Below are positions 3,351 through 63,861 of a stretch of 64,000 bases of DNA, one piece after another (the stretch's first letter is position 1; each line of letters opens with the position of its first letter). The stretch comes from a virus, in IMG/VR virus record IMGVR_UViG_3300042465_007464, positions 45,601 to 109,600 of that record. One strand, given 5' to 3'. Under the pieces are notes generated by a model. That model worked only from the letters and a program-made list of their open reading frames with translations. It had not been told where the DNA came from and ran no database searches. A program made the translations under genes and the position numbers.

Positions 3351-4198
3351 TACTTCAACTCTTTCAATTCGCGAACTAAATCAAAGTAACGTAGTAAATT
3401 TAATACGTGCGATTCTTTGATAGTTTTCATAGATTCTACATTGCATAACATTTCCGACAATTTAGTTACTTTGATTTGTGTAGCAGGATCAGTTATAGTT
3501 TTTGCTTGTGTGGCTAAATCTTTTTTGATTTGTGGTATTATAGTTTCAATGTATTCACGCAATGCAGTTGTATCATTAACGTGAGTAATGTATTTATTTA
3601 ATAGACGTTTTTGTGATTCATCTAATACTGAATATTTTTCATTGAATTTATCAACAATAATTTTATATGTTAATAAACGTATTTCTTTGGGTTGTGATTC
3701 AAATGATTCTAATACCGGGTCTTTTTTCGGTGTAGCACGCTCCGTTACAATGCCATGGTCTATAATTACATTTTTACATTCCATTAATTGTTTTGGATTT
3801 GCTGATTCAGCATATTCAAACAACATGTTGATTGATGCTAATACTTTGTAATTAGTAATATGCATCTTTGCCATATCTGTAAAAACGAATTTTTCAGAAA
3901 TCTCTTTTACTAGATTGTATCTTTGACGTTTCAGTACGCTTTGATTTAATTTATCATACGCAGATTTAACCGTACGTATGTAATCTAATGCTTGTGCTTC
4001 GCTTCGGAATTGTTCTTTAACTAATGCGTTATAGAGTTGCAATTCTTTTGATAACTCTGTATTTCGTCCAAAATATTTTTTGATTATATCTATTGTAACA
4101 GATTTGTTTGACGACAACGTTTCTGAAGTTAATTTGCGTACCAACATTTCAAATAGAATGCCGGTATTTTTATACTTCGAGTGTTTCAATTTCTTCAT
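3350..4198 (-). CDS. Hypothetical protein (head cluster)
   Basis: 282-aa ORF, MKKLKHSKYKNTGILFE N-terminus, between portal and protease. Confidence 0.65.
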   Translation of the reverse strand: MKKLKHSKYKNTGILFEMLVRKLTSETLSSNKSVTIDIIKKYFGRNTELSKELQLYNALVKEQFRSEAQALDYIRTVKSAYDKLNQSVLKRQRYNLVKEISEKFVFTDMAKMHITNYKVLASINMLFEYAESANPKQLMECKNVIIDHGIVTERATPKKDPVLESFESQPKEIRLLTYKIIVDKFNEKYSVLDESQKRLLNKYITHVNDTTALREYIETIIPQIKKDLATQAKTITDPATQIKVTKLSEMLCNVESMKTIKESHVLNLLRYFDLVRELKELK

Positions 4199-4240: not shown

Positions 4241-6082
4241 TTACAAAATATTGTTTTCATCTAAAATAGTACCAGCGTCTTTATCAGATTCCGTTGGTAT
4301 TGCTGTTTTTAAAGATTCTGTTATTATGGATGCACCTTTATTTTTTATTTTTAAATGTTTCAATATGTTGTTATGTTCTACGGCAACTGTTGCGTTGTTT
4401 TTAAACTTCGGATCTGGCTGAAATGCTGTTTTTTGATTTTCTGGATTAAATGTTTGCTTAATAGTTTTAATACCCGTTGGATCCCATCCAAATTCATTTT
4501 GATGTTGTCCTGATTTAATTCCTTCTGGTGGACGGCCTCCTAAATCTTTTTCTTCAACGTCATCGCTGGACATGTGCATTGATGCTAAATCATGAGGTGT
4601 TCCAAATGAAACTCCCGTTATAGCAGGATCATTTCCTTCTTGTTCAATCTGATTTTGACGGAAACGAAGTTTAAGATCTTCAATAACATCAACACGTTCT
4701 TGAAGCCATTGTTCTTCGGACATATTGAATATAAACTCATAAATGTAACGATCTGAAACAAGTTTTAAATCTTTCATTGTATTTGCTAATTGAACTTTTT
4801 CATTCATTAAAGCAACTTTTTGTTGATCGTATATAATTGATGGTGCTGTTAATTCTAGTTCAAATCCAATTAAATCTTCGCCTTCAAATCCTTGTGAATA
4901 TAAATGCACTATTCCAATTTTAATAAGTTCCGATGTTACGATTTTTTGAATACGTTCGATAGTTCTGGCAAAACGAATATCCATGGATGCTAACGTAGTT
5001 TTACCTTCAACTGACTCGCTATATCCTAAAAATGGTTTAGGAATTTTAAGTGCAGCCATCATTTTATCTTTTACATATTCAATATCATCCATTCCGGTAA
5101 ATGTCATACCTGGTAATGTATCAATTGTAGTAGAAGACTGACCCCCGCGTACTGGCAAATAATAATCTTCTAACATGTTGTTAAGATTGAATCTCATGTT
5201 GTAATTTCCAGTTTGCGGATCGATGTGTGGAATTTTTTTCATTTTATTGATAATCTGTTCCATGAAATTATCAACTTCATTTGGTGGAATATTACCAATA
5301 TCAATTTTAAAGATTCGTTTTTCTGGTGCACGCATTATACGATGAATAAGCATTGCATCTTCTAACATCATTAATTTTTGAAATTCTTTACGTGCTCCTT
5401 CTAACATAGATCTACCGTACGGTAAAAAGTTTGAATCCGACAACATACGGAAATGTGCTATTTCAAACACATCATATGTCATTTGTTCTGACGCAATATT
5501 TTTAAATTTAATATCATATTCACCCGTCGCTTCATTATATTCTTCCCAACGTTCCATTTCATAACTAGAAAATGGACGTGCATTAACTACTCCGTAAGTG
5601 TCTGCGATATCTAATTTCAAAAAGAAATCACCGTATTTGGTCATGTTGCGTATCCACGTCCACAAATTGAATTCAATGTTCAATACATCATAAAACAAGT
5701 TATAAAGTATTTTTTGAATTTGCGTGTTATTAGTTTTGATTGTAAGTATATCTCCGAATTGATCTGCTAATGTAGATTCATCTGAATAAATATCTAAGGC
5801 AGAAGATATGATTGGATCTTTATCCATCATTTCGTAGTCAGCATATAACTGCATACGATTTTGGTGCATATAATAATTAGAATCATATCCACCCATACCA
5901 CCGACACGGTGTTTGTTTGCACCATGCAGTCGAGTATATCGATCTGCAATTTTACTTTGTGCTAAATTACCAGAACCTTGTAGACGATTTGTATCTACTA
6001 CACGTACCTGATCTTTCCCATATGCCCGAACAATTACGTTGGTGCTAAATAGGTTCTGTAAACGTTTTCTTAATGACGCCAT
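4241..6082 (-). CDS. Portal protein (T4 gp20-like)
   Basis: EDAMLIHRIMRAPEKRIFKIDIGN, LEDYYLPVRGG and IDTLPG motifs. Confidence 0.93.
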   Translation of the reverse strand: MASLRKRLQNLFSTNVIVRAYGKDQVRVVDTNRLQGSGNLAQSKIADRYTRLHGANKHRVGGMGGYDSNYYMHQNRMQLYADYEMMDKDPIISSALDIYSDESTLADQFGDILTIKTNNTQIQKILYNLFYDVLNIEFNLWTWIRNMTKYGDFFLKLDIADTYGVVNARPFSSYEMERWEEYNEATGEYDIKFKNIASEQMTYDVFEIAHFRMLSDSNFLPYGRSMLEGARKEFQKLMMLEDAMLIHRIMRAPEKRIFKIDIGNIPPNEVDNFMEQIINKMKKIPHIDPQTGNYNMRFNLNNMLEDYYLPVRGGQSSTTIDTLPGMTFTGMDDIEYVKDKMMAALKIPKPFLGYSESVEGKTTLASMDIRFARTIERIQKIVTSELIKIGIVHLYSQGFEGEDLIGFELELTAPSIIYDQQKVALMNEKVQLANTMKDLKLVSDRYIYEFIFNMSEEQWLQERVDVIEDLKLRFRQNQIEQEGNDPAITGVSFGTPHDLASMHMSSDDVEEKDLGGRPPEGIKSGQHQNEFGWDPTGIKTIKQTFNPENQKTAFQPDPKFKNNATVAVEHNNILKHLKIKNKGASIITESLKTAIPTESDKDAGTILDENNIL

Positions 6083-6124
6083 ATTTCTTTTTTAATATAA
6101 ATATAACTATGTTAAGATCAGTGG

Positions 6125-7705
6125 TTATTTTATCAACCAAGTTAATGATTCATCGCCTGACCCAGGATTCCAATTCCATCCATTGTCGCTGTTATTACGA
6201 TTGCCAGTATAAATAACTGGACTCGTTTTTTGAAAAGAAGATAGTGCACGTTTATTCAAATCAATACCTTGTTGACGTAATTTTAGTGCAGTATCGCGTA
6301 ACCATAATCCGATACAAAATGACATTACTAAGTCATCGTTATATCCTTGTTGTGCTTGTGCTTTACCATTAAGCCAAACAAACACTAGTAATTCTTGTAT
6401 TAAACGTCGGCTACGAATAAACGGAGTACGATCTCGCATATACATTTCAAGTGCCGATATCATTAATGGACGTGTACGTGTTGTGGTTGATACTCCCGGA
6501 ACCATTTGGCTCTTATCTTTCATATCATAACCTTTTTTCAATTGTACATCGGCATCTGTATATCCGTCATCTTTATATGTATAATGTAAGTTTTGATAGT
6601 TTCTATCAAGTGCCGGCTGAATTGCGGCCCAACCAATGTTTGCATTTTCAATAGCTAATAACGCATTGTTCCATTCCGTTGCAACCGTTACTAACATGTT
6701 TCCAAATTCATTGGGTGGAATCTTTCCTTTAAATTCTGCTACTTGTCGTACCGTTTCAACTTCTAAAACATGAAATGCAGACCAGTCACCACCATCACCC
6801 CGTGCGACGTCAGCTACTACCATGTAATCACGTGCATAGTCCGGATATTCCCAAATCCAATACGCTCCATCAAATCCACGCTTTTCAATTGGTTCTTCAC
6901 ATTTACCTTCATATTCTAAAAGCAAAGGACCATCTACTACAGTATGTCCCGATGATACGAAGTCACAGTCACATTCTTGTGCCGCACCGCGTTCGCCTAA
7001 TAACGATGTTTGTTCATTACGCCACGTTTGGTCGCGTTCTGGGTGCACATCCCAACGCAAACGAATTGTATGGAAACCGTTAATGTCCGCTTCCGCGTCT
7101 GCCCAAGTTTGGTGAAACCAGTTACCAACACCGTTCGGCGTAGATAATACAATAGCACCACCACCCGTTGATAGGGTTGCTTGCGACGCTATCCATATTT
7201 CTTCAATGTTTCGAATAAATGCAGCCTCATCAATGATTAGCAGAGACAACGCTTCTGAACGTGCTCCTGTGGTTGCTGATGAAACGGCTTTGATTTGCGA
7301 ACCATTTTTAAATTTAAGTGATAATTTGTTATCAGCTTCAACCGTACCTTTCAACCAACTTGGCAAGTTATCGTGCATCACCCGTACTTTCGTTACTAGG
7401 TTTTTTGCTACTTCTTGTGTGGTTGCAATAACTAACACGTTGAAATCTTCTTTGAACAACATGCACCAAAGTGCAAAGCCGGCAGATAGAGTTGATATAC
7501 CTAACTGCCGAGACTTTAATATTACATTGTATCGATTATCGCGAAGCTGTGTTAATGAATCTTCTTGGAATGGAAACAAATTAAATTTGATCTTACCACG
7601 TTTAGGATGTTGTATGTAACAATAATTACGCATAAAAAATACAGGATCTTTAGCACATTGCATGTACTGTTGTTGTATTATCTGCTTAATATTTTGTTGT
7701 GCCAT
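6125..7705 (-). CDS. Terminase large subunit (T4 gp17-like)
   Basis: KSRQLGIST Walker A, IIDEAAF Walker B, STPNG, and nuclease motifs DVARGDG and NDDLVM. Confidence 0.95.
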   Translation of the reverse strand: MAQQNIKQIIQQQYMQCAKDPVFFMRNYCYIQHPKRGKIKFNLFPFQEDSLTQLRDNRYNVILKSRQLGISTLSAGFALWCMLFKEDFNVLVIATTQEVAKNLVTKVRVMHDNLPSWLKGTVEADNKLSLKFKNGSQIKAVSSATTGARSEALSLLIIDEAAFIRNIEEIWIASQATLSTGGGAIVLSTPNGVGNWFHQTWADAEADINGFHTIRLRWDVHPERDQTWRNEQTSLLGERGAAQECDCDFVSSGHTVVDGPLLLEYEGKCEEPIEKRGFDGAYWIWEYPDYARDYMVVADVARGDGGDWSAFHVLEVETVRQVAEFKGKIPPNEFGNMLVTVATEWNNALLAIENANIGWAAIQPALDRNYQNLHYTYKDDGYTDADVQLKKGYDMKDKSQMVPGVSTTTRTRPLMISALEMYMRDRTPFIRSRRLIQELLVFVWLNGKAQAQQGYNDDLVMSFCIGLWLRDTALKLRQQGIDLNKRALSSFQKTSPVIYTGNRNNSDNGWNWNPGSGDESLTWLIK

Positions 7706-43663: not shown

Positions 43664-43789
43664 CTCTCTTTATTTAATTGGTTTCTATATTATAAAAATA
43701 AGGAAAAAATCAGTACGATCCAACCTTTTTACTAACTTTAATGAAAGTTTTTTTATTGATATTTATATGAAAGAAACCATAAAGGATAC

Positions 43790-45001: not shown

Positions 45002-45092
45002 CTCTCTTTATTTAATTGGTTTCTTATATTATAAAAATAAGGAAAAAACCAATACAATCCAACCGAATCATAAAAAAAGTTTCGAAAAAGTT

Positions 45093-46684: not shown

Positions 46685-46969
46685 TTAACGTTTATGAATT
46701 CGATTTGCAATTCGTTCTTTATTTTGACGTTTTCTCTCTGCCGGCATCATTTTCTTCAAAGGATGGGTTCGATTCATGTTACGTTCGGTTTGCACGGTTA
46801 AAAGTGCGTTATTCCAAGCATCTTCCGGCGTATCACAATCTGGCAATAAGAAAATATCATTAAGATTTTGTTCGTTCCACAAAACAAAGTATTTACCAAA
46901 GGCAGATGCGATATCTGCCCCTGGATAAAATTGATTTACTTTGCGTTGTATGGATTCTAGCTTATGCAT
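46685..46969 (-). CDS. Hypothetical protein
   Basis: 94-aa ORF in an operon. Confidence 0.55.
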   Translation of the reverse strand: MHKLESIQRKVNQFYPGADIASAFGKYFVLWNEQNLNDIFLLPDCDTPEDAWNNALLTVQTERNMNRTHPLKKMMPAERKRQNKERIANRIHKR

Positions 46970-51140: not shown

Positions 51141-51204
51141 ATGAATAAAAATTAAAGGTTACAAATAAAAATAAGAAAATAAAATTAAAATTCCAACCGA
51201 ATTA

Positions 51205-55670: not shown

Positions 55671-55695
55671 ATCCTTATTTGAGAGATATGTTCGC

Positions 55696-57095: not shown

Positions 57096-57174
57096 ATCTC
57101 TTTGTTTTAGATTGTTTCTCACGTCCGCATGGGCCAACATTTCTGCTGGCCCGGGACTATGTTGAGAGATATGT

Positions 57175-57549
57175 TTACTCTGTTAATGTTGCCTCATATT
57201 GTTCATCGCTGTCATCAACAATTTCAAAGCATCTGTCTAAGGCATTTTGGATGGCATCAAAGATGTTGTCACTCTCGACGTCGACATTTACCAACCTTAC
57301 TGTGTTGTGATAATCCATTTCAAACTCAGCTGATGACAAAGCAACAACGTCATCATTGTCCATGTTATTGATTGCGGATTCAATCACATCACCGATTGCA
57401 TCAAACATTGATTGCGTCATGCGCAACTCTGTCTTTGTCACTACCTCAGGATCCAAGCCTTGGATAAGTGCAATCACATTGTCAATTGATACTACTGAAG
57501 TCAACGCCTTTGCTGCTTCTAACTGTGCTACTAATTCTTCTTTTCTCAT
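57175..57549 (-). CDS. Early acidic hypothetical protein
   Basis: 124 aa; own promoter. Confidence 0.65.
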   Translation of the reverse strand: MRKEELVAQLEAAKALTSVVSIDNVIALIQGLDPEVVTKTELRMTQSMFDAIGDVIESAINNMDNDDVVALSSAEFEMDYHNTVRLVNVDVESDNIFDAIQNALDRCFEIVDDSDEQYEATLTE

Positions 57550-58089: not shown

Positions 58090-58830
58090 TTACAGGTACT
58101 GAGCCAATAACTCAATACCCGGTAAACTTGCCAATGCCGTCTCTGCCTGTCGAACTAATTGTCTTGCACGTTCATTCGTCACATTCATCTCCTCAGCAAT
58201 TTGATCCATGCATTGTGCATACTCTCGTCCGATCCCGTAGAATCTCTCCAATGCTTCGCGTTGCTTTGGTTTAAGCATACTCATAGCACGTTGCAAATCG
58301 AATTGCATATCTTGCACGTCACGGCGTGATACGGTGCTATCCGCAGCCAAGTAACGATCCGCATAGGTTTCTTTGTTCTCGTCGTCACCTACCGGAGTGG
58401 ATATGCTTTTGGTGCTATACTCCTCAGTAGCCGTACGGTGGCTTGGGATCCTTACTGTGCGGGACATATCATTCAATGCCTTTTGCAACTCGGCACGGAT
58501 ATACCATACCGCAAAGGTAATGAACTTAACGCCTTTGGTTGGATCGTAACGTTCAGCGGCTTCAAACAAACCTACATTACCAAACCCAATGAGATCCTCC
58601 AATTCCAAACCCATTCCCTGATACTGTCGTGCTACTTGGATAACGAATCGCAAATTGCTTTCCACCAACTCATTGATTGCACGTCGGTCTCCTTGCTGTG
58701 CGCGTTCTCCTAATACGATCTCTTGTTCTCGAGTCAATGTGCCTGCCTTGCGCACTTCTTGCATGTATCTTACTGTAGACTCTGCTGTGGCTACTACTGC
58801 GCCGGTTGTGATGAATTTTCTTTTTGACAT
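58090..58830 (-). CDS. RNA polymerase sigma70-family factor (RpoD/RpoS-like)
   Basis: NLRFVIQVARQY, EDLIGFGNVGLFEAAERYDP..G.KFITFAVWYIR, region 4 ERARQL. Confidence 0.92.
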   Translation of the reverse strand: MSKRKFITTGAVVATAESTVRYMQEVRKAGTLTREQEIVLGERAQQGDRRAINELVESNLRFVIQVARQYQGMGLELEDLIGFGNVGLFEAAERYDPTKGVKFITFAVWYIRAELQKALNDMSRTVRIPSHRTATEEYSTKSISTPVGDDENKETYADRYLAADSTVSRRDVQDMQFDLQRAMSMLKPKQREALERFYGIGREYAQCMDQIAEEMNVTNERARQLVRQAETALASLPGIELLAQYL

Positions 58831-59391: not shown

Positions 59392-59474
59392 ATCTCTCTT
59401 TTTAAATTAATACTTAAATATAATAAAAAAAGGGATGCGTGTCAAGCATCCCGGTAACTTTTTTCAAACTTTTT

Positions 59475-62021: not shown

Positions 62022-62092
62022 ATCTCTTATTTTTTTATATACTTAAAGATAAGTAAAAAAGAGATGCGTGTCAAGCATCTCCCTAACTTTTT

Positions 62093-62347
62093 TTAAACTT
62101 TTTTTGCATCCGTAACAAGCTTGTTACGGAGCTTGTCTACTAACTTTTTAAAATTAGTAACTGCATCCCAATTCCCGGTGTCTATGGGAGCTGTTAACCC
62201 GAAATACCCGTCGGGAGCGTAATGCATATTAAGCAACTGCATACGCGGACTTGCTTTGCGCAATGCTACTTGTTGTGCTGCTACACGTGCAGCTACTTGC
62301 TTAAGCTCTACATCTGTAAGCAATGTGACATTAAAACTTTCTTGCAT
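62093..62347 (-). CDS. Early hypothetical protein
   Basis: 84 aa; own promoter. Confidence 0.6.
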   Translation of the reverse strand: MQESFNVTLLTDVELKQVAARVAAQQVALRKASPRMQLLNMHYAPDGYFGLTAPIDTGNWDAVTNFKKLVDKLRNKLVTDAKKV

Positions 62348-62437
62348 ATCTCTATTTTTAAATTATACTTAAATATAATAATAAAAAGCACGCGTGTCAA
62401 GCAAAATGCAAACTTTTTTTAACTTTTTTTTTACAGC

Positions 62438-62675
62438 AAAAAACAGCGCTGCTAGGTGAGAGATCCTAACAACGCTGTTGGGCACCTGGAAAGAGAGAAA
62501 CCCTACCTAACTTGCCGATCCGCCGACCATCGTAGCTTGTTGCTGACCCTGAGGTGTGCGAAGCTTGTTGTGGTCGGACCCCGTCGGCATTTGAATCGAT
62601 CCACGTATCATTAACCTGTCGCCAGATCCTTTGGTCGCCTAGCATACGGCATTTGGTTGGATCAACCTTCCTACA
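62438..62675 (-). ncRNA. Candidate structured small RNA (~235 nt)
   Basis: TTGGA...TATTATAT promoter at 62679-62709; 13-bp terminator stem at 62444-62477 plus U-tract; ~80-nt imperfect hairpin at 62513-62589; no credible ORF. Confidence 0.65.
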
Positions 62676-62724
62676 TCTATATAATAAGAAATAATACGCA
62701 CATATCCAACCTTTACGCGCACTT

Positions 62725-63150
62725 CGTACGTGTCGCTATAGCTAGGTCATCAAAGCGTACGTGCATATAGTGCAGATTTCATCTAAAACCTGAAAGCAAT
62801 CTAAAGGTCAATTCGCCTAAAAATCAACTAAAAATAGCCGGGGAGCGGAGGATTCTTCTAAAAATCGTCTAAAAATAGCAGCATCGGACTAAAAATCAAC
62901 TAAAAATAGGACTCGCTATAGCTAGCGATTTCACCAGGATCGCGTCATACGTGTGTATAGTGCAGGTCATGATGGTCTCGCATAAGCCGCAAGATCACAT
63001 ACGACACGACGTATCTGGCGTAGGGAGGAGAGGATGCATCTAAAAATCAACTAAAAATAACGTCACCCGTTTCTGTTTATAATAAGGAATTCCGTCCAAA
63101 AATCAAACCAAATTCATCTAAAAGTCCCCTAAAAATCGTCTAAAAATAAC
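62725..63150. repeat. Iteron-like CTAAAAAT repeats (paired, 11-bp period) in a non-coding region
   Basis: ctaaaaatcaactaaaaata x3 and ctaaaaatcgtctaaaaata x2; tcgctatagctag x2; tatagtgcag x2. Confidence 0.8.
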
Positions 63151-63571
63151 ATGGGGCATACAGTGCGTATACGTGCTTCCAGGCCTTAACGGATATCAAG
63201 TATCCAGTGCATGTGCAATAAAGACGCTAAGGCGCTAGGAAATGGTGTATAGGGAGAGCGATATATATATCTGTACTACCACCCACGTTCTATTCACTCT
63301 TCCGCCTGGATCGCATCATCCCATGACTCAAACTTTTAACGCATTCTTTCGGGTTGACGCCTCTCCTGGATAAAGGACAAGACACTGGGATGCTGTCACC
63401 ATGACCCCTAACTAATTCATACAATGACGTGCTTCGTACATATACTTGCATTACTTACATTACTTCGAGTATTACTTGTCGTCTTCGTGTTCTTTGCTAG
63501 GTTCTTGGGCATAGATCCGTAACGTACTGTGTTGGAACTTTAGTTAGGGCAATGCGGTGTCTGCTTGGATA

Positions 63572-63736
63572 TCAATTCAATATTTTAAATCTCAACCAAA
63601 TTCTAAACTTTGCCAATAACAAAAACAAAGGCATATCCGTATAAGAAGTACATAAGGTTACGTCGTTGCAAGTACCACTTAATCCTTCCTTAAAGGAATA
63701 GCCTTCGAAATCGAATGTGTTCCATTTAATTTTCAT
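63572..63736 (-). CDS. Small hypothetical protein (54 aa)
   Basis: Manual translation MKIKWNTFDFEGYSFKEGLSG... Confidence 0.45.
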   Translation of the reverse strand: MKIKWNTFDFEGYSFKEGLSGTCNDVTLCTSYTDMPLFLLLAKFRIWLRFKILN

Positions 63737-63749
63737 ATCATTTTTTTAG

Positions 63750-63861
63750 TAGTCAGGACAAGATTCGAACTTGCACGTGGACCTTGTGTGTATCTCAACT
63801 ATACTGCGGTTATTCCACTCCGTTTAACTATTCAGTGCGTTTACCATTCCGCCACCTGACT
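63750..63861 (-). ncRNA. tRNA-like RNA with an expanded, non-canonical central region
   Basis: AGTCAGG/CCTGACT acceptor; TGGCGGAATGGTAAACGC D-arm; GCAAG-TTCGAAT-CTTGT T-arm; GTGGA/TCCAC extra stem; no CCA. Confidence 0.7.

Follow-up and report, generated by a model that had tools for sequence, protein, structure and literature searches.

The c4 antisense RNA of phages P1 and P7 is a structured RNA whose loops pair around a ribosome-binding site and block translation (PMC12197685). In phage T4, RegB cuts GGAG motifs, RegA binds initiation regions, and many early mRNAs are inactivated (PMC3014915). The main text of a 2025 review on phage sRNAs contains neither the term 'early gene' nor 'lytic phage' (PMC12197685). 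Literature searches for an RNA that silences a phage's own early regulon were carried out and none was found. To our knowledge, little has been learned about regulatory RNAs in lytic phages, and phages of Bacteroidota have no described example.

Two groups of bacterial RNAs are also relevant for comparison. The C-rich-loop sRNAs of Firmicutes (RNAIII and those of the RsaE/RoxS type) expose pyrimidine loops, often the terminator loop, that pair with the purine-rich initiation regions of many mRNAs; in these hosts, which use Shine–Dalgarno (SD) sequences, UCCC is directed against the GGGA of the SD element. The sRNAs derived from 3′ UTRs carry a single-stranded seed just before the terminator hairpin.

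The locus described here belongs to a virus record of 109.6 kb in IMG/VR, the final 64 kb of which were analysed and are called the window. It specifies a candidate RNA that resembles c4 (Rfam family C4) in being phage-encoded and structured, with loops complementary to an initiation region. The statement of the initial annotation that no phage system of this kind was known was overstated, as c4 already masks a ribosome-binding site with its loops (PMC12197685). The RNA of the window is nevertheless a different RNA, without a match to the Rfam model. Whereas c4 maintains the immunity of a temperate phage and has a single operon (ant) as its target, the RNA proposed here belongs to a lytic, T4-type phage and would reach about 20 early genes, at dispersed sites, by way of the start signature that they share. 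In contrast to the C-rich-loop sRNAs, it displays CU repeats without C runs, its target abuts and includes the start codon, and its likely host is SD-blind. The likeness to RegA and RegB is a functional analogy only, since both of these are proteins whereas an RNA is proposed here, and the motif in this phage is AGAGAU-AUG. Two 13-mers elsewhere in the window, and a variant of the RNA in one relative, have the layout of 3′-UTR-derived sRNAs. By sequence model, the RNA fits none of the compared systems; the regulatory principle itself is already known.

The features of the locus are listed in Table 1. On the minus strand, the unit consists, in this order, of a GGTTGG box, a spacer, a TATA-rich box, a body of about 240 nt, a 15-bp hairpin and a U-tract. 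The GC content of the body is 0.48–0.50, against about 0.33–0.40 in its surroundings, and the fold of the unit is better than that of 200 out of 200 shuffled sequences (z = −3.1). The terminator hairpin (62479–62442), with 7 GC pairs in its 15-bp stem and the U-tract right behind it, is of the intrinsic type. A single copy of the RNA gene is present in the genome record.

Table 1. Features of the RNA locus and of related elements in the 64-kb window (positions are those of the window).
Feature	Positions	Strand	Basis
Promoter-to-terminator unit, ~240 nt	62711–62436	−	
Promoter-like element, GGTTGG class: −35-like box, 13–15 nt spacer, TTYCWTAT running into a TATA-rich −10-like region	62684–62711	−	Pattern count
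All four GGTTGG-class sites (the RNA and three protein genes)	43698–43725, 45037–45064, 51171–51198, 62684–62711	−	
Non-coding RNA, ~235–240 nt	62437–62676	−	5′ end inferred from onset of family conservation, 3′ end from terminator
Conserved 5′ domain: GGAAGG, then GGUUGAUCCAACCAAAUGC, short hairpin, GCGACC, AAGGAUC	62620–62674	−	Alignment A3, 27 members
Hairpin displaying the CU-repeat loop; CU motif UUUCUCUCUUU in the loop (62500–62490)	62474–62514	−	Match to model R1, 21.5 bits, E = 6e-4
Intrinsic terminator hairpin with 8-nt loop, the CU motif AUCUCUCA (62464–62457), then U-tract	62436–62479	−	Terminator scan
First early promoter (TTGACA, 17 nt, TATATT), immediately behind the RNA	62372–62400	−	Promoter scan, 11 of 12 positions matched
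First early gene, start signature AGAGAUAUG, putative target	62093–62353	−	
Field of paired iterons (ATTTTTAG) preceding the RNA promoter	62790–63150	−	
Full anti-start 13-mer, between stop codon and terminator hairpin; motif as in the RNA of relatives	55680–55692	−	
Second anti-start 13-mer, directly behind a stop codon and before a GC-rich inverted repeat	57163–57175	−	Repeat by eye, not called by terminator scan

Open reading frames of 59, 52, 34 and 33 aa lie within the unit, counting both strands; they are not preserved in relatives, in which indels are not multiples of three. A protein-coding gene was rejected because no reading frame is kept among the homologues, and coding on the opposite strand because the 52-aa frames of the window and of the related contig L002 are unrelated to each other. 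A search of the unit against Rfam 15 gave no family at gathering score (C4, 6S, tmRNA, RsaE, CsrB-type and GOLLD/ROOL included), and at E values up to 10 the only match was at chance level, with 19 bits against a gathering score of 90, and clipped the last 20 bases of the unit. Distant blastn of positions 62300–63800 against 50,697 phage records gave no match, and IMG/VR contained no exact copy of a 19-mer taken from the loop region.

These data agree with the initial annotation in that a promoter-to-terminator unit without credible reading frame and two CU motifs on the minus strand are found at the positions it gave. It had also proposed to check for a known RNA family and for CU motifs that are buried or lost in relatives; no Rfam match explains the structure, and the motifs are conserved in relatives and predicted to be unpaired. 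The RNA gene is very likely real and conserved.

The pattern GGTTGG-N13-15-TTYCWTAT occurs four times in the genome, always on the minus strand, against 0.01 copies expected, and boxes of this class are also located upstream of the homologues in L005, L026, L034, L045 and L055. The class is distinct from the early and the late consensus: early promoters fit TTG, about 20 nt and TAnnTTT, and late genes stand behind ATATTTATATAAA-type boxes. The distinction drawn by the initial annotation between a TTGGA-type promoter and the early type is thus well founded. An early gene (58090–58830) encodes a sigma-70-family protein with regions 2 and 4, and we infer that this phage sigma factor reads the GGTTGG class. 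Two of the three protein genes with such a promoter themselves carry a target-like leader, which weakens the simple picture of a temporal switch.

The TTGACA box of two early promoters (59432–59452 and 62058–62084, minus strand) is situated in the loop of a terminator-like hairpin, and the same element may there both terminate a transcript and initiate the following one.

About 30 distinct homologues of the window RNA were recovered from IMG/VR and metagenome contigs, searching with the iteron pair first and then with the conserved 5′ segment. The iteron pattern gave many chance matches, true relatives being only about 10 contigs; the first related contig, L002, was reached through a neighbouring early protein. 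The order iterons, promoter, RNA and first early promoter was the same in 10 of the 10 viral contigs inspected, and the window RNA conforms to it, with the iteron field on one side, the first early promoter on the other and a GGTTGG-type promoter ahead of it. The RNA family is new and uncatalogued.

Members of the family are 210–500 nt long and modular. They comprise, in order, the 5′ domain, a second helix with A/C-rich internal loops, optional inserts, an anti-start motif (AACAUAUCUCUCA or a close variant, in 20 members), a UUAGGUAAGG box and the CU-loop hairpin, usually followed by a U-tract. The loop of this hairpin has 13–17 nt, reads UUUCUCUCUCUUAUU or a close variant, and is almost invariant across the family, far better kept than the surrounding stems. 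The 5′ domain, in which the window sequence aligns with 26 other members, is nearly invariant as well, although this is partly due to the search pattern, which included part of the domain. Compensatory changes affect one of its eight predicted pairs (alignment A3); with almost no covariation on folding, no consensus structure is claimed for it. The description of the RNA as stand-alone holds in the window, but not throughout the relatives, in which the RNA may carry a tRNA-like insert or follow a small ORF.

A tRNA-shaped element of 112 nt is located in the window at 63750–63861 (minus strand; 41 bits with the Rfam tRNA model), and elements of the same kind, of 113 nt, lie inside the CU-loop RNA units of L063 (2228–2340, plus strand) and L116 (1101–1213, minus strand). 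With ARAGORN, neither the window nor any of the eight relative loci scanned gave a tRNA call; in a search of eight relatives, Rfam gave only tRNA-model matches, two of them on the embedded inserts of L063 and L116. Because of these embedded elements, the family RNA may be a precursor cut by tRNA-processing enzymes. In another relative, L039, a 138-aa ORF is inserted right behind the CU-loop hairpin (5786–6202, minus strand; flanks 5760–6260) and is followed by a 22-nt duplicate of the 3′ half of the hairpin; the arrangement resembles a homing-type mobile insertion, and a Pfam search of the inserted ORF gave no match. An insertion of this type exactly at the hairpin suggests that the hairpin site is highly conserved.

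The CU-loop hairpin was found in 31 members with the covariance model R1. In the fitted alignment, compensatory changes are present in 9 of the 11 stem pairs, and the covariation score is 0.374, against 0.184 in shuffles, none of 500 shuffles being as high; the maximum falls at the true register. The many G–U pairs of the stem are consistent with an RNA of the minus, transcribed strand. Of the 29 relatives scored, 20 have a CU loop whose predicted unpaired probability exceeds 0.9; the mean over the whole RNA is about 0.44. The hairpin of the window belongs to this type, with a loop two bases shorter than the family norm and the second-lowest R1 score among the members. Its loop (loop 1) is partly paired, with an unpaired probability of 0.64 and an opening cost of 3.9 kcal/mol, and the terminator loop has a probability of 1.00. 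A weak R1 match (19.6 bits) at 46715–46755 on the plus strand of the window lies on the non-transcribed strand inside a coding region and is probably due to chance.

Two further RNA architectures occupy the same genomic position. L002 has iterons, a similar promoter and then, before the early genes, a minimal RNA of 100 nt (3495–3612, plus strand) composed of a hairpin, a single-stranded seed of 16 nt and a terminator; the 16-nt stretch is the exact complement of the start signature of that phage, AUG included. In L010 and L018 (oriented, about 900–1170 and 480–700, respectively), a small ORF is followed by two CU-loop hairpins and the anti-start motif. The three architectures, including the main family, all retain an anti-leader motif and have only these motifs in common.

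The shared start signature of the early genes, as proposed in the initial annotation, is clearly overrepresented: AGAGATATG occurs 14 times in the window, against 0.58 expected, with 12 occurrences on the minus strand, 11 of which fall in the early region. A looser filter for purine-rich leaders gave 25 gene starts, and the 14 listed, the first of these, are all early. Early leaders are present in every phage in two variants, ...AAUAAGAGAUAUG (variant A) and ...AAAGAGAGAUAUG or ...AAAGAGAGAUAUAUG (variant B). Variant A is complementary to the family CU loop over 9 nt, and variant B is complementary over 9–10 nt to the loop forms found in the L005 group and in L084 and L089. The AUG-containing motif is the complement of 10 nt, namely the start codon and the 7 bases upstream of it. 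With composition-preserving shuffles, P was 0.04–0.07 for the CU loops, 0.0004 for the AUG-containing motif and 0.0006 for the L002 seed (11 nt); the terminator loop of the window, a 7-nt complement of GAGAGAU, had P = 0.008 against shuffles. Pyrimidine richness explains much of the CU-loop match, and the AUG-containing motif is clearly non-random.

The AUG-containing motif is missing or mutated in L065, L107, L125 and the L005 group; in L026 it carries an A-to-G change that still allows a wobble pair with the target U. The CAU-containing form AACAUAUCUCUCA was looked for in the window RNA and is absent, and only AUCUCUCA, in the terminator loop, is found. ATCTCTC has only three copies on the transcribed strand of the window, all of them non-coding and beside or inside a terminator hairpin: one forms part of the terminator loop of the unit, and two stand behind stop codons and ahead of hairpins at 55.7 and 57.2 kb. 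The AUG-complement motif was also considered as the start of a divergent gene, which was rejected because the antisense ORFs have only 2–46 aa.

Pairing was predicted along the minus strand of the 64 kb. With queries restricted to the loops, 11–15 of the top 25 sites fell on ORF starts, against a baseline of 4%, and the gene starts listed among these top sites were mostly those of early genes. Shuffled loops placed 0–3 of the top 25 on starts unless the CU repeat was retained. When stem nucleotides were added to the loop, the duplex scan of the same strand gave no enrichment at starts. Net energies (duplex formation plus opening of both partners) ranged from about −2 to −16 kcal/mol in the relative L067, most of them between −6 and −14. 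In the window RNA, matches are of 7–9 nt only and net energies are about +3 to −8 kcal/mol, the weakest of the family. For the proposal of a trans-acting sRNA directed against the early regulon, the conserved non-coding RNA and its exposed loops are in favour, while the short and weak pairings of the window copy and the modest P values of the CU loops are not.

The host is probably a member of the Bacteroidota. A structural protein has distant matches in Flavobacterium phages, and the early promoter pattern TTG ... TAnnTTT was counted as host context. Ribosomes of Bacteroidia ignore Shine–Dalgarno sequences, and initiation needs an unstructured region with upstream adenines (PMC7797042). Given this dependence on an unstructured, A-rich region, pairing across −12 to +3 should block initiation, and masking the initiation region of SD-blind ribosomes would be effective.

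On this basis, a mechanism is proposed in which the RNA would be transcribed from the GGTTGG promoter, unlike the host-type early promoters, would end at the intrinsic terminator and would accumulate as a non-early transcript. Its open CU loops and, in most members, the anti-start motif would then form trans duplexes with the leader shared by about 20 early genes, a purine-rich stretch from −12 to +3, leaving a double-stranded initiation region and less early translation. RNAs derived from 3′ ends and carrying the two 13-mers behind stop codons (55.7 and 57.2 kb) may have this effect as well. That the RNA is made, pairs and represses, and when it would act, are all read from sequence features. 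Pairing with the shared early leaders and a reduction of early translation are accordingly put forward tentatively, with a likelihood that we place a little short of even. The large and strongly conserved 5′ domain has no role in the pairing model.

This 5′ domain bears on the alternative that survives best, an RNA that binds protein or acts as a sponge, its CU loops and 5′ domain being bound by a host or phage protein (for example S1 or a KH-type protein) and its complementarity to leaders being a by-product of composition. Both the 5′ domain and the UUAGGUAAGG box are conserved in sequence with little covariation, a pattern typical of contacts with protein or of tertiary contacts; in complementarity the CU loops exceed shuffles only modestly, and for the window copy weak pairing is predicted with most leaders, particularly through loop 1. 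Such a role is unlikely: the second motif is an exact complement of AUG and the 7 upstream bases (P = 0.0004), the unrelated architectures at the same position share only anti-leader motifs, and no candidate protein was identified.

A base-pairing RNA could also be directed at the host, with AG-repeat mRNAs or the pre-16S leader as targets in place of the early genes of the phage. An AAGAGA-type purine box was observed in 23 of the 48 Bacteroidota rRNA leaders scanned, and in roughly a dozen Flavobacteriales (leaders within L133–L205) it lies about 72–90 nt before the 16S 5′ end; in one Flavobacterium leader (L202, 2654–2673), 12 nt situated about 74 nt ahead of that end are perfectly complementary to the CU loop of the family. 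The box is, however, short and not universal, and the AUG-containing motif matches the early starts of the phage in particular, so host targets are considered improbable.

It is improbable to a similar degree that the family is real while the two CU motifs of the window are decayed remnants, the anti-start function being exerted in this phage through the 13-mers at 55.7 and 57.2 kb. The window copy has the lowest R1 score but one, lacks the CAU part and shows the weakest energies, and full 13-mers are present elsewhere in the window. The near-identical L077, its closest homologue, nevertheless keeps both loops. L077 differs by insertions and deletions, including one deletion of 19 nt; as its CU loop is longer by one CU repeat and its stem is changed by an insertion, the loop appears to be maintained.

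An origin or terminus transcript (a primer or R-loop former at the iterons) or a cis-acting leader of the first early gene is less probable again. The unit abuts the iteron field and is located 95 nt upstream of the first early gene, and several relatives have an iteron within the spacer of the promoter (L026, 1040–1120; L045, oriented, about 60–110). The strong intrinsic terminator, the structured and conserved body, the invariant loop with its covarying stem and the presence of the anti-start motif at two other 3′ ends argue against both versions, and a pyrimidine-rich RNA is a poor former of stable R-loops. Given these iterons within promoter spacers, the RNA promoter may be under the control of a protein that binds iterons, and the iteron field may serve as more than an origin.

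An SD-like word (AGGA, GGAG or GAGG; by eye mostly AAGGA) was observed at −16 to −5 in 13 of the 54 late or middle genes (those below 54.6 kb) and in none of the 8 early genes, compared with 5% of background windows; such words are odd in a phage whose likely hosts ignore Shine–Dalgarno sequences. In L055, L045, L026, L039 and other relatives, a module between the 5′ domain and the anti-start motif looks like helix 45 of Bacteroidota 16S rRNA together with the 3′ tail and shares a 9-mer with this tail (AACACCUCC); the sequence of the tail was confirmed in more than 100 Bacteroidota genomes.

A positive action on translation, either as the ribosome-recruiting adaptor offered as a second option by the initial annotation, which found no direct support, or as an imitation of the 3′ end of 16S rRNA by which ribosomes are retuned, could draw on this module, present in most relatives, and on the SD-like words of late and middle genes, but it is very unlikely: the module was looked for in the window RNA and in L077 and is missing from both, stem covariation has changed it in L005, base pairs take up half of the tail-like sequence, and a 9-mer match is weak evidence. 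Slighter still is the chance of a device with two functions that reprogrammes SD-blind ribosomes, in which the anti-start loops would silence the early regulon while the 16S-like module of most members, imitating helix 45 and the 3′ tail, would draw off bS21, bS18 and bS6, the proteins hiding the anti-SD, and so make host ribosomes available for the AAGGA-type sites of the phage's late genes.

The family is large, easily recognised and uncatalogued, and can enter RNA databases now; its invariant loop is a sharply defined experimental handle. If the RNA does silence about 20 early genes through their start signature, it would be an RNA counterpart of T4 RegA and RegB, and it would provide a natural tool for turning off translation on SD-blind ribosomes.
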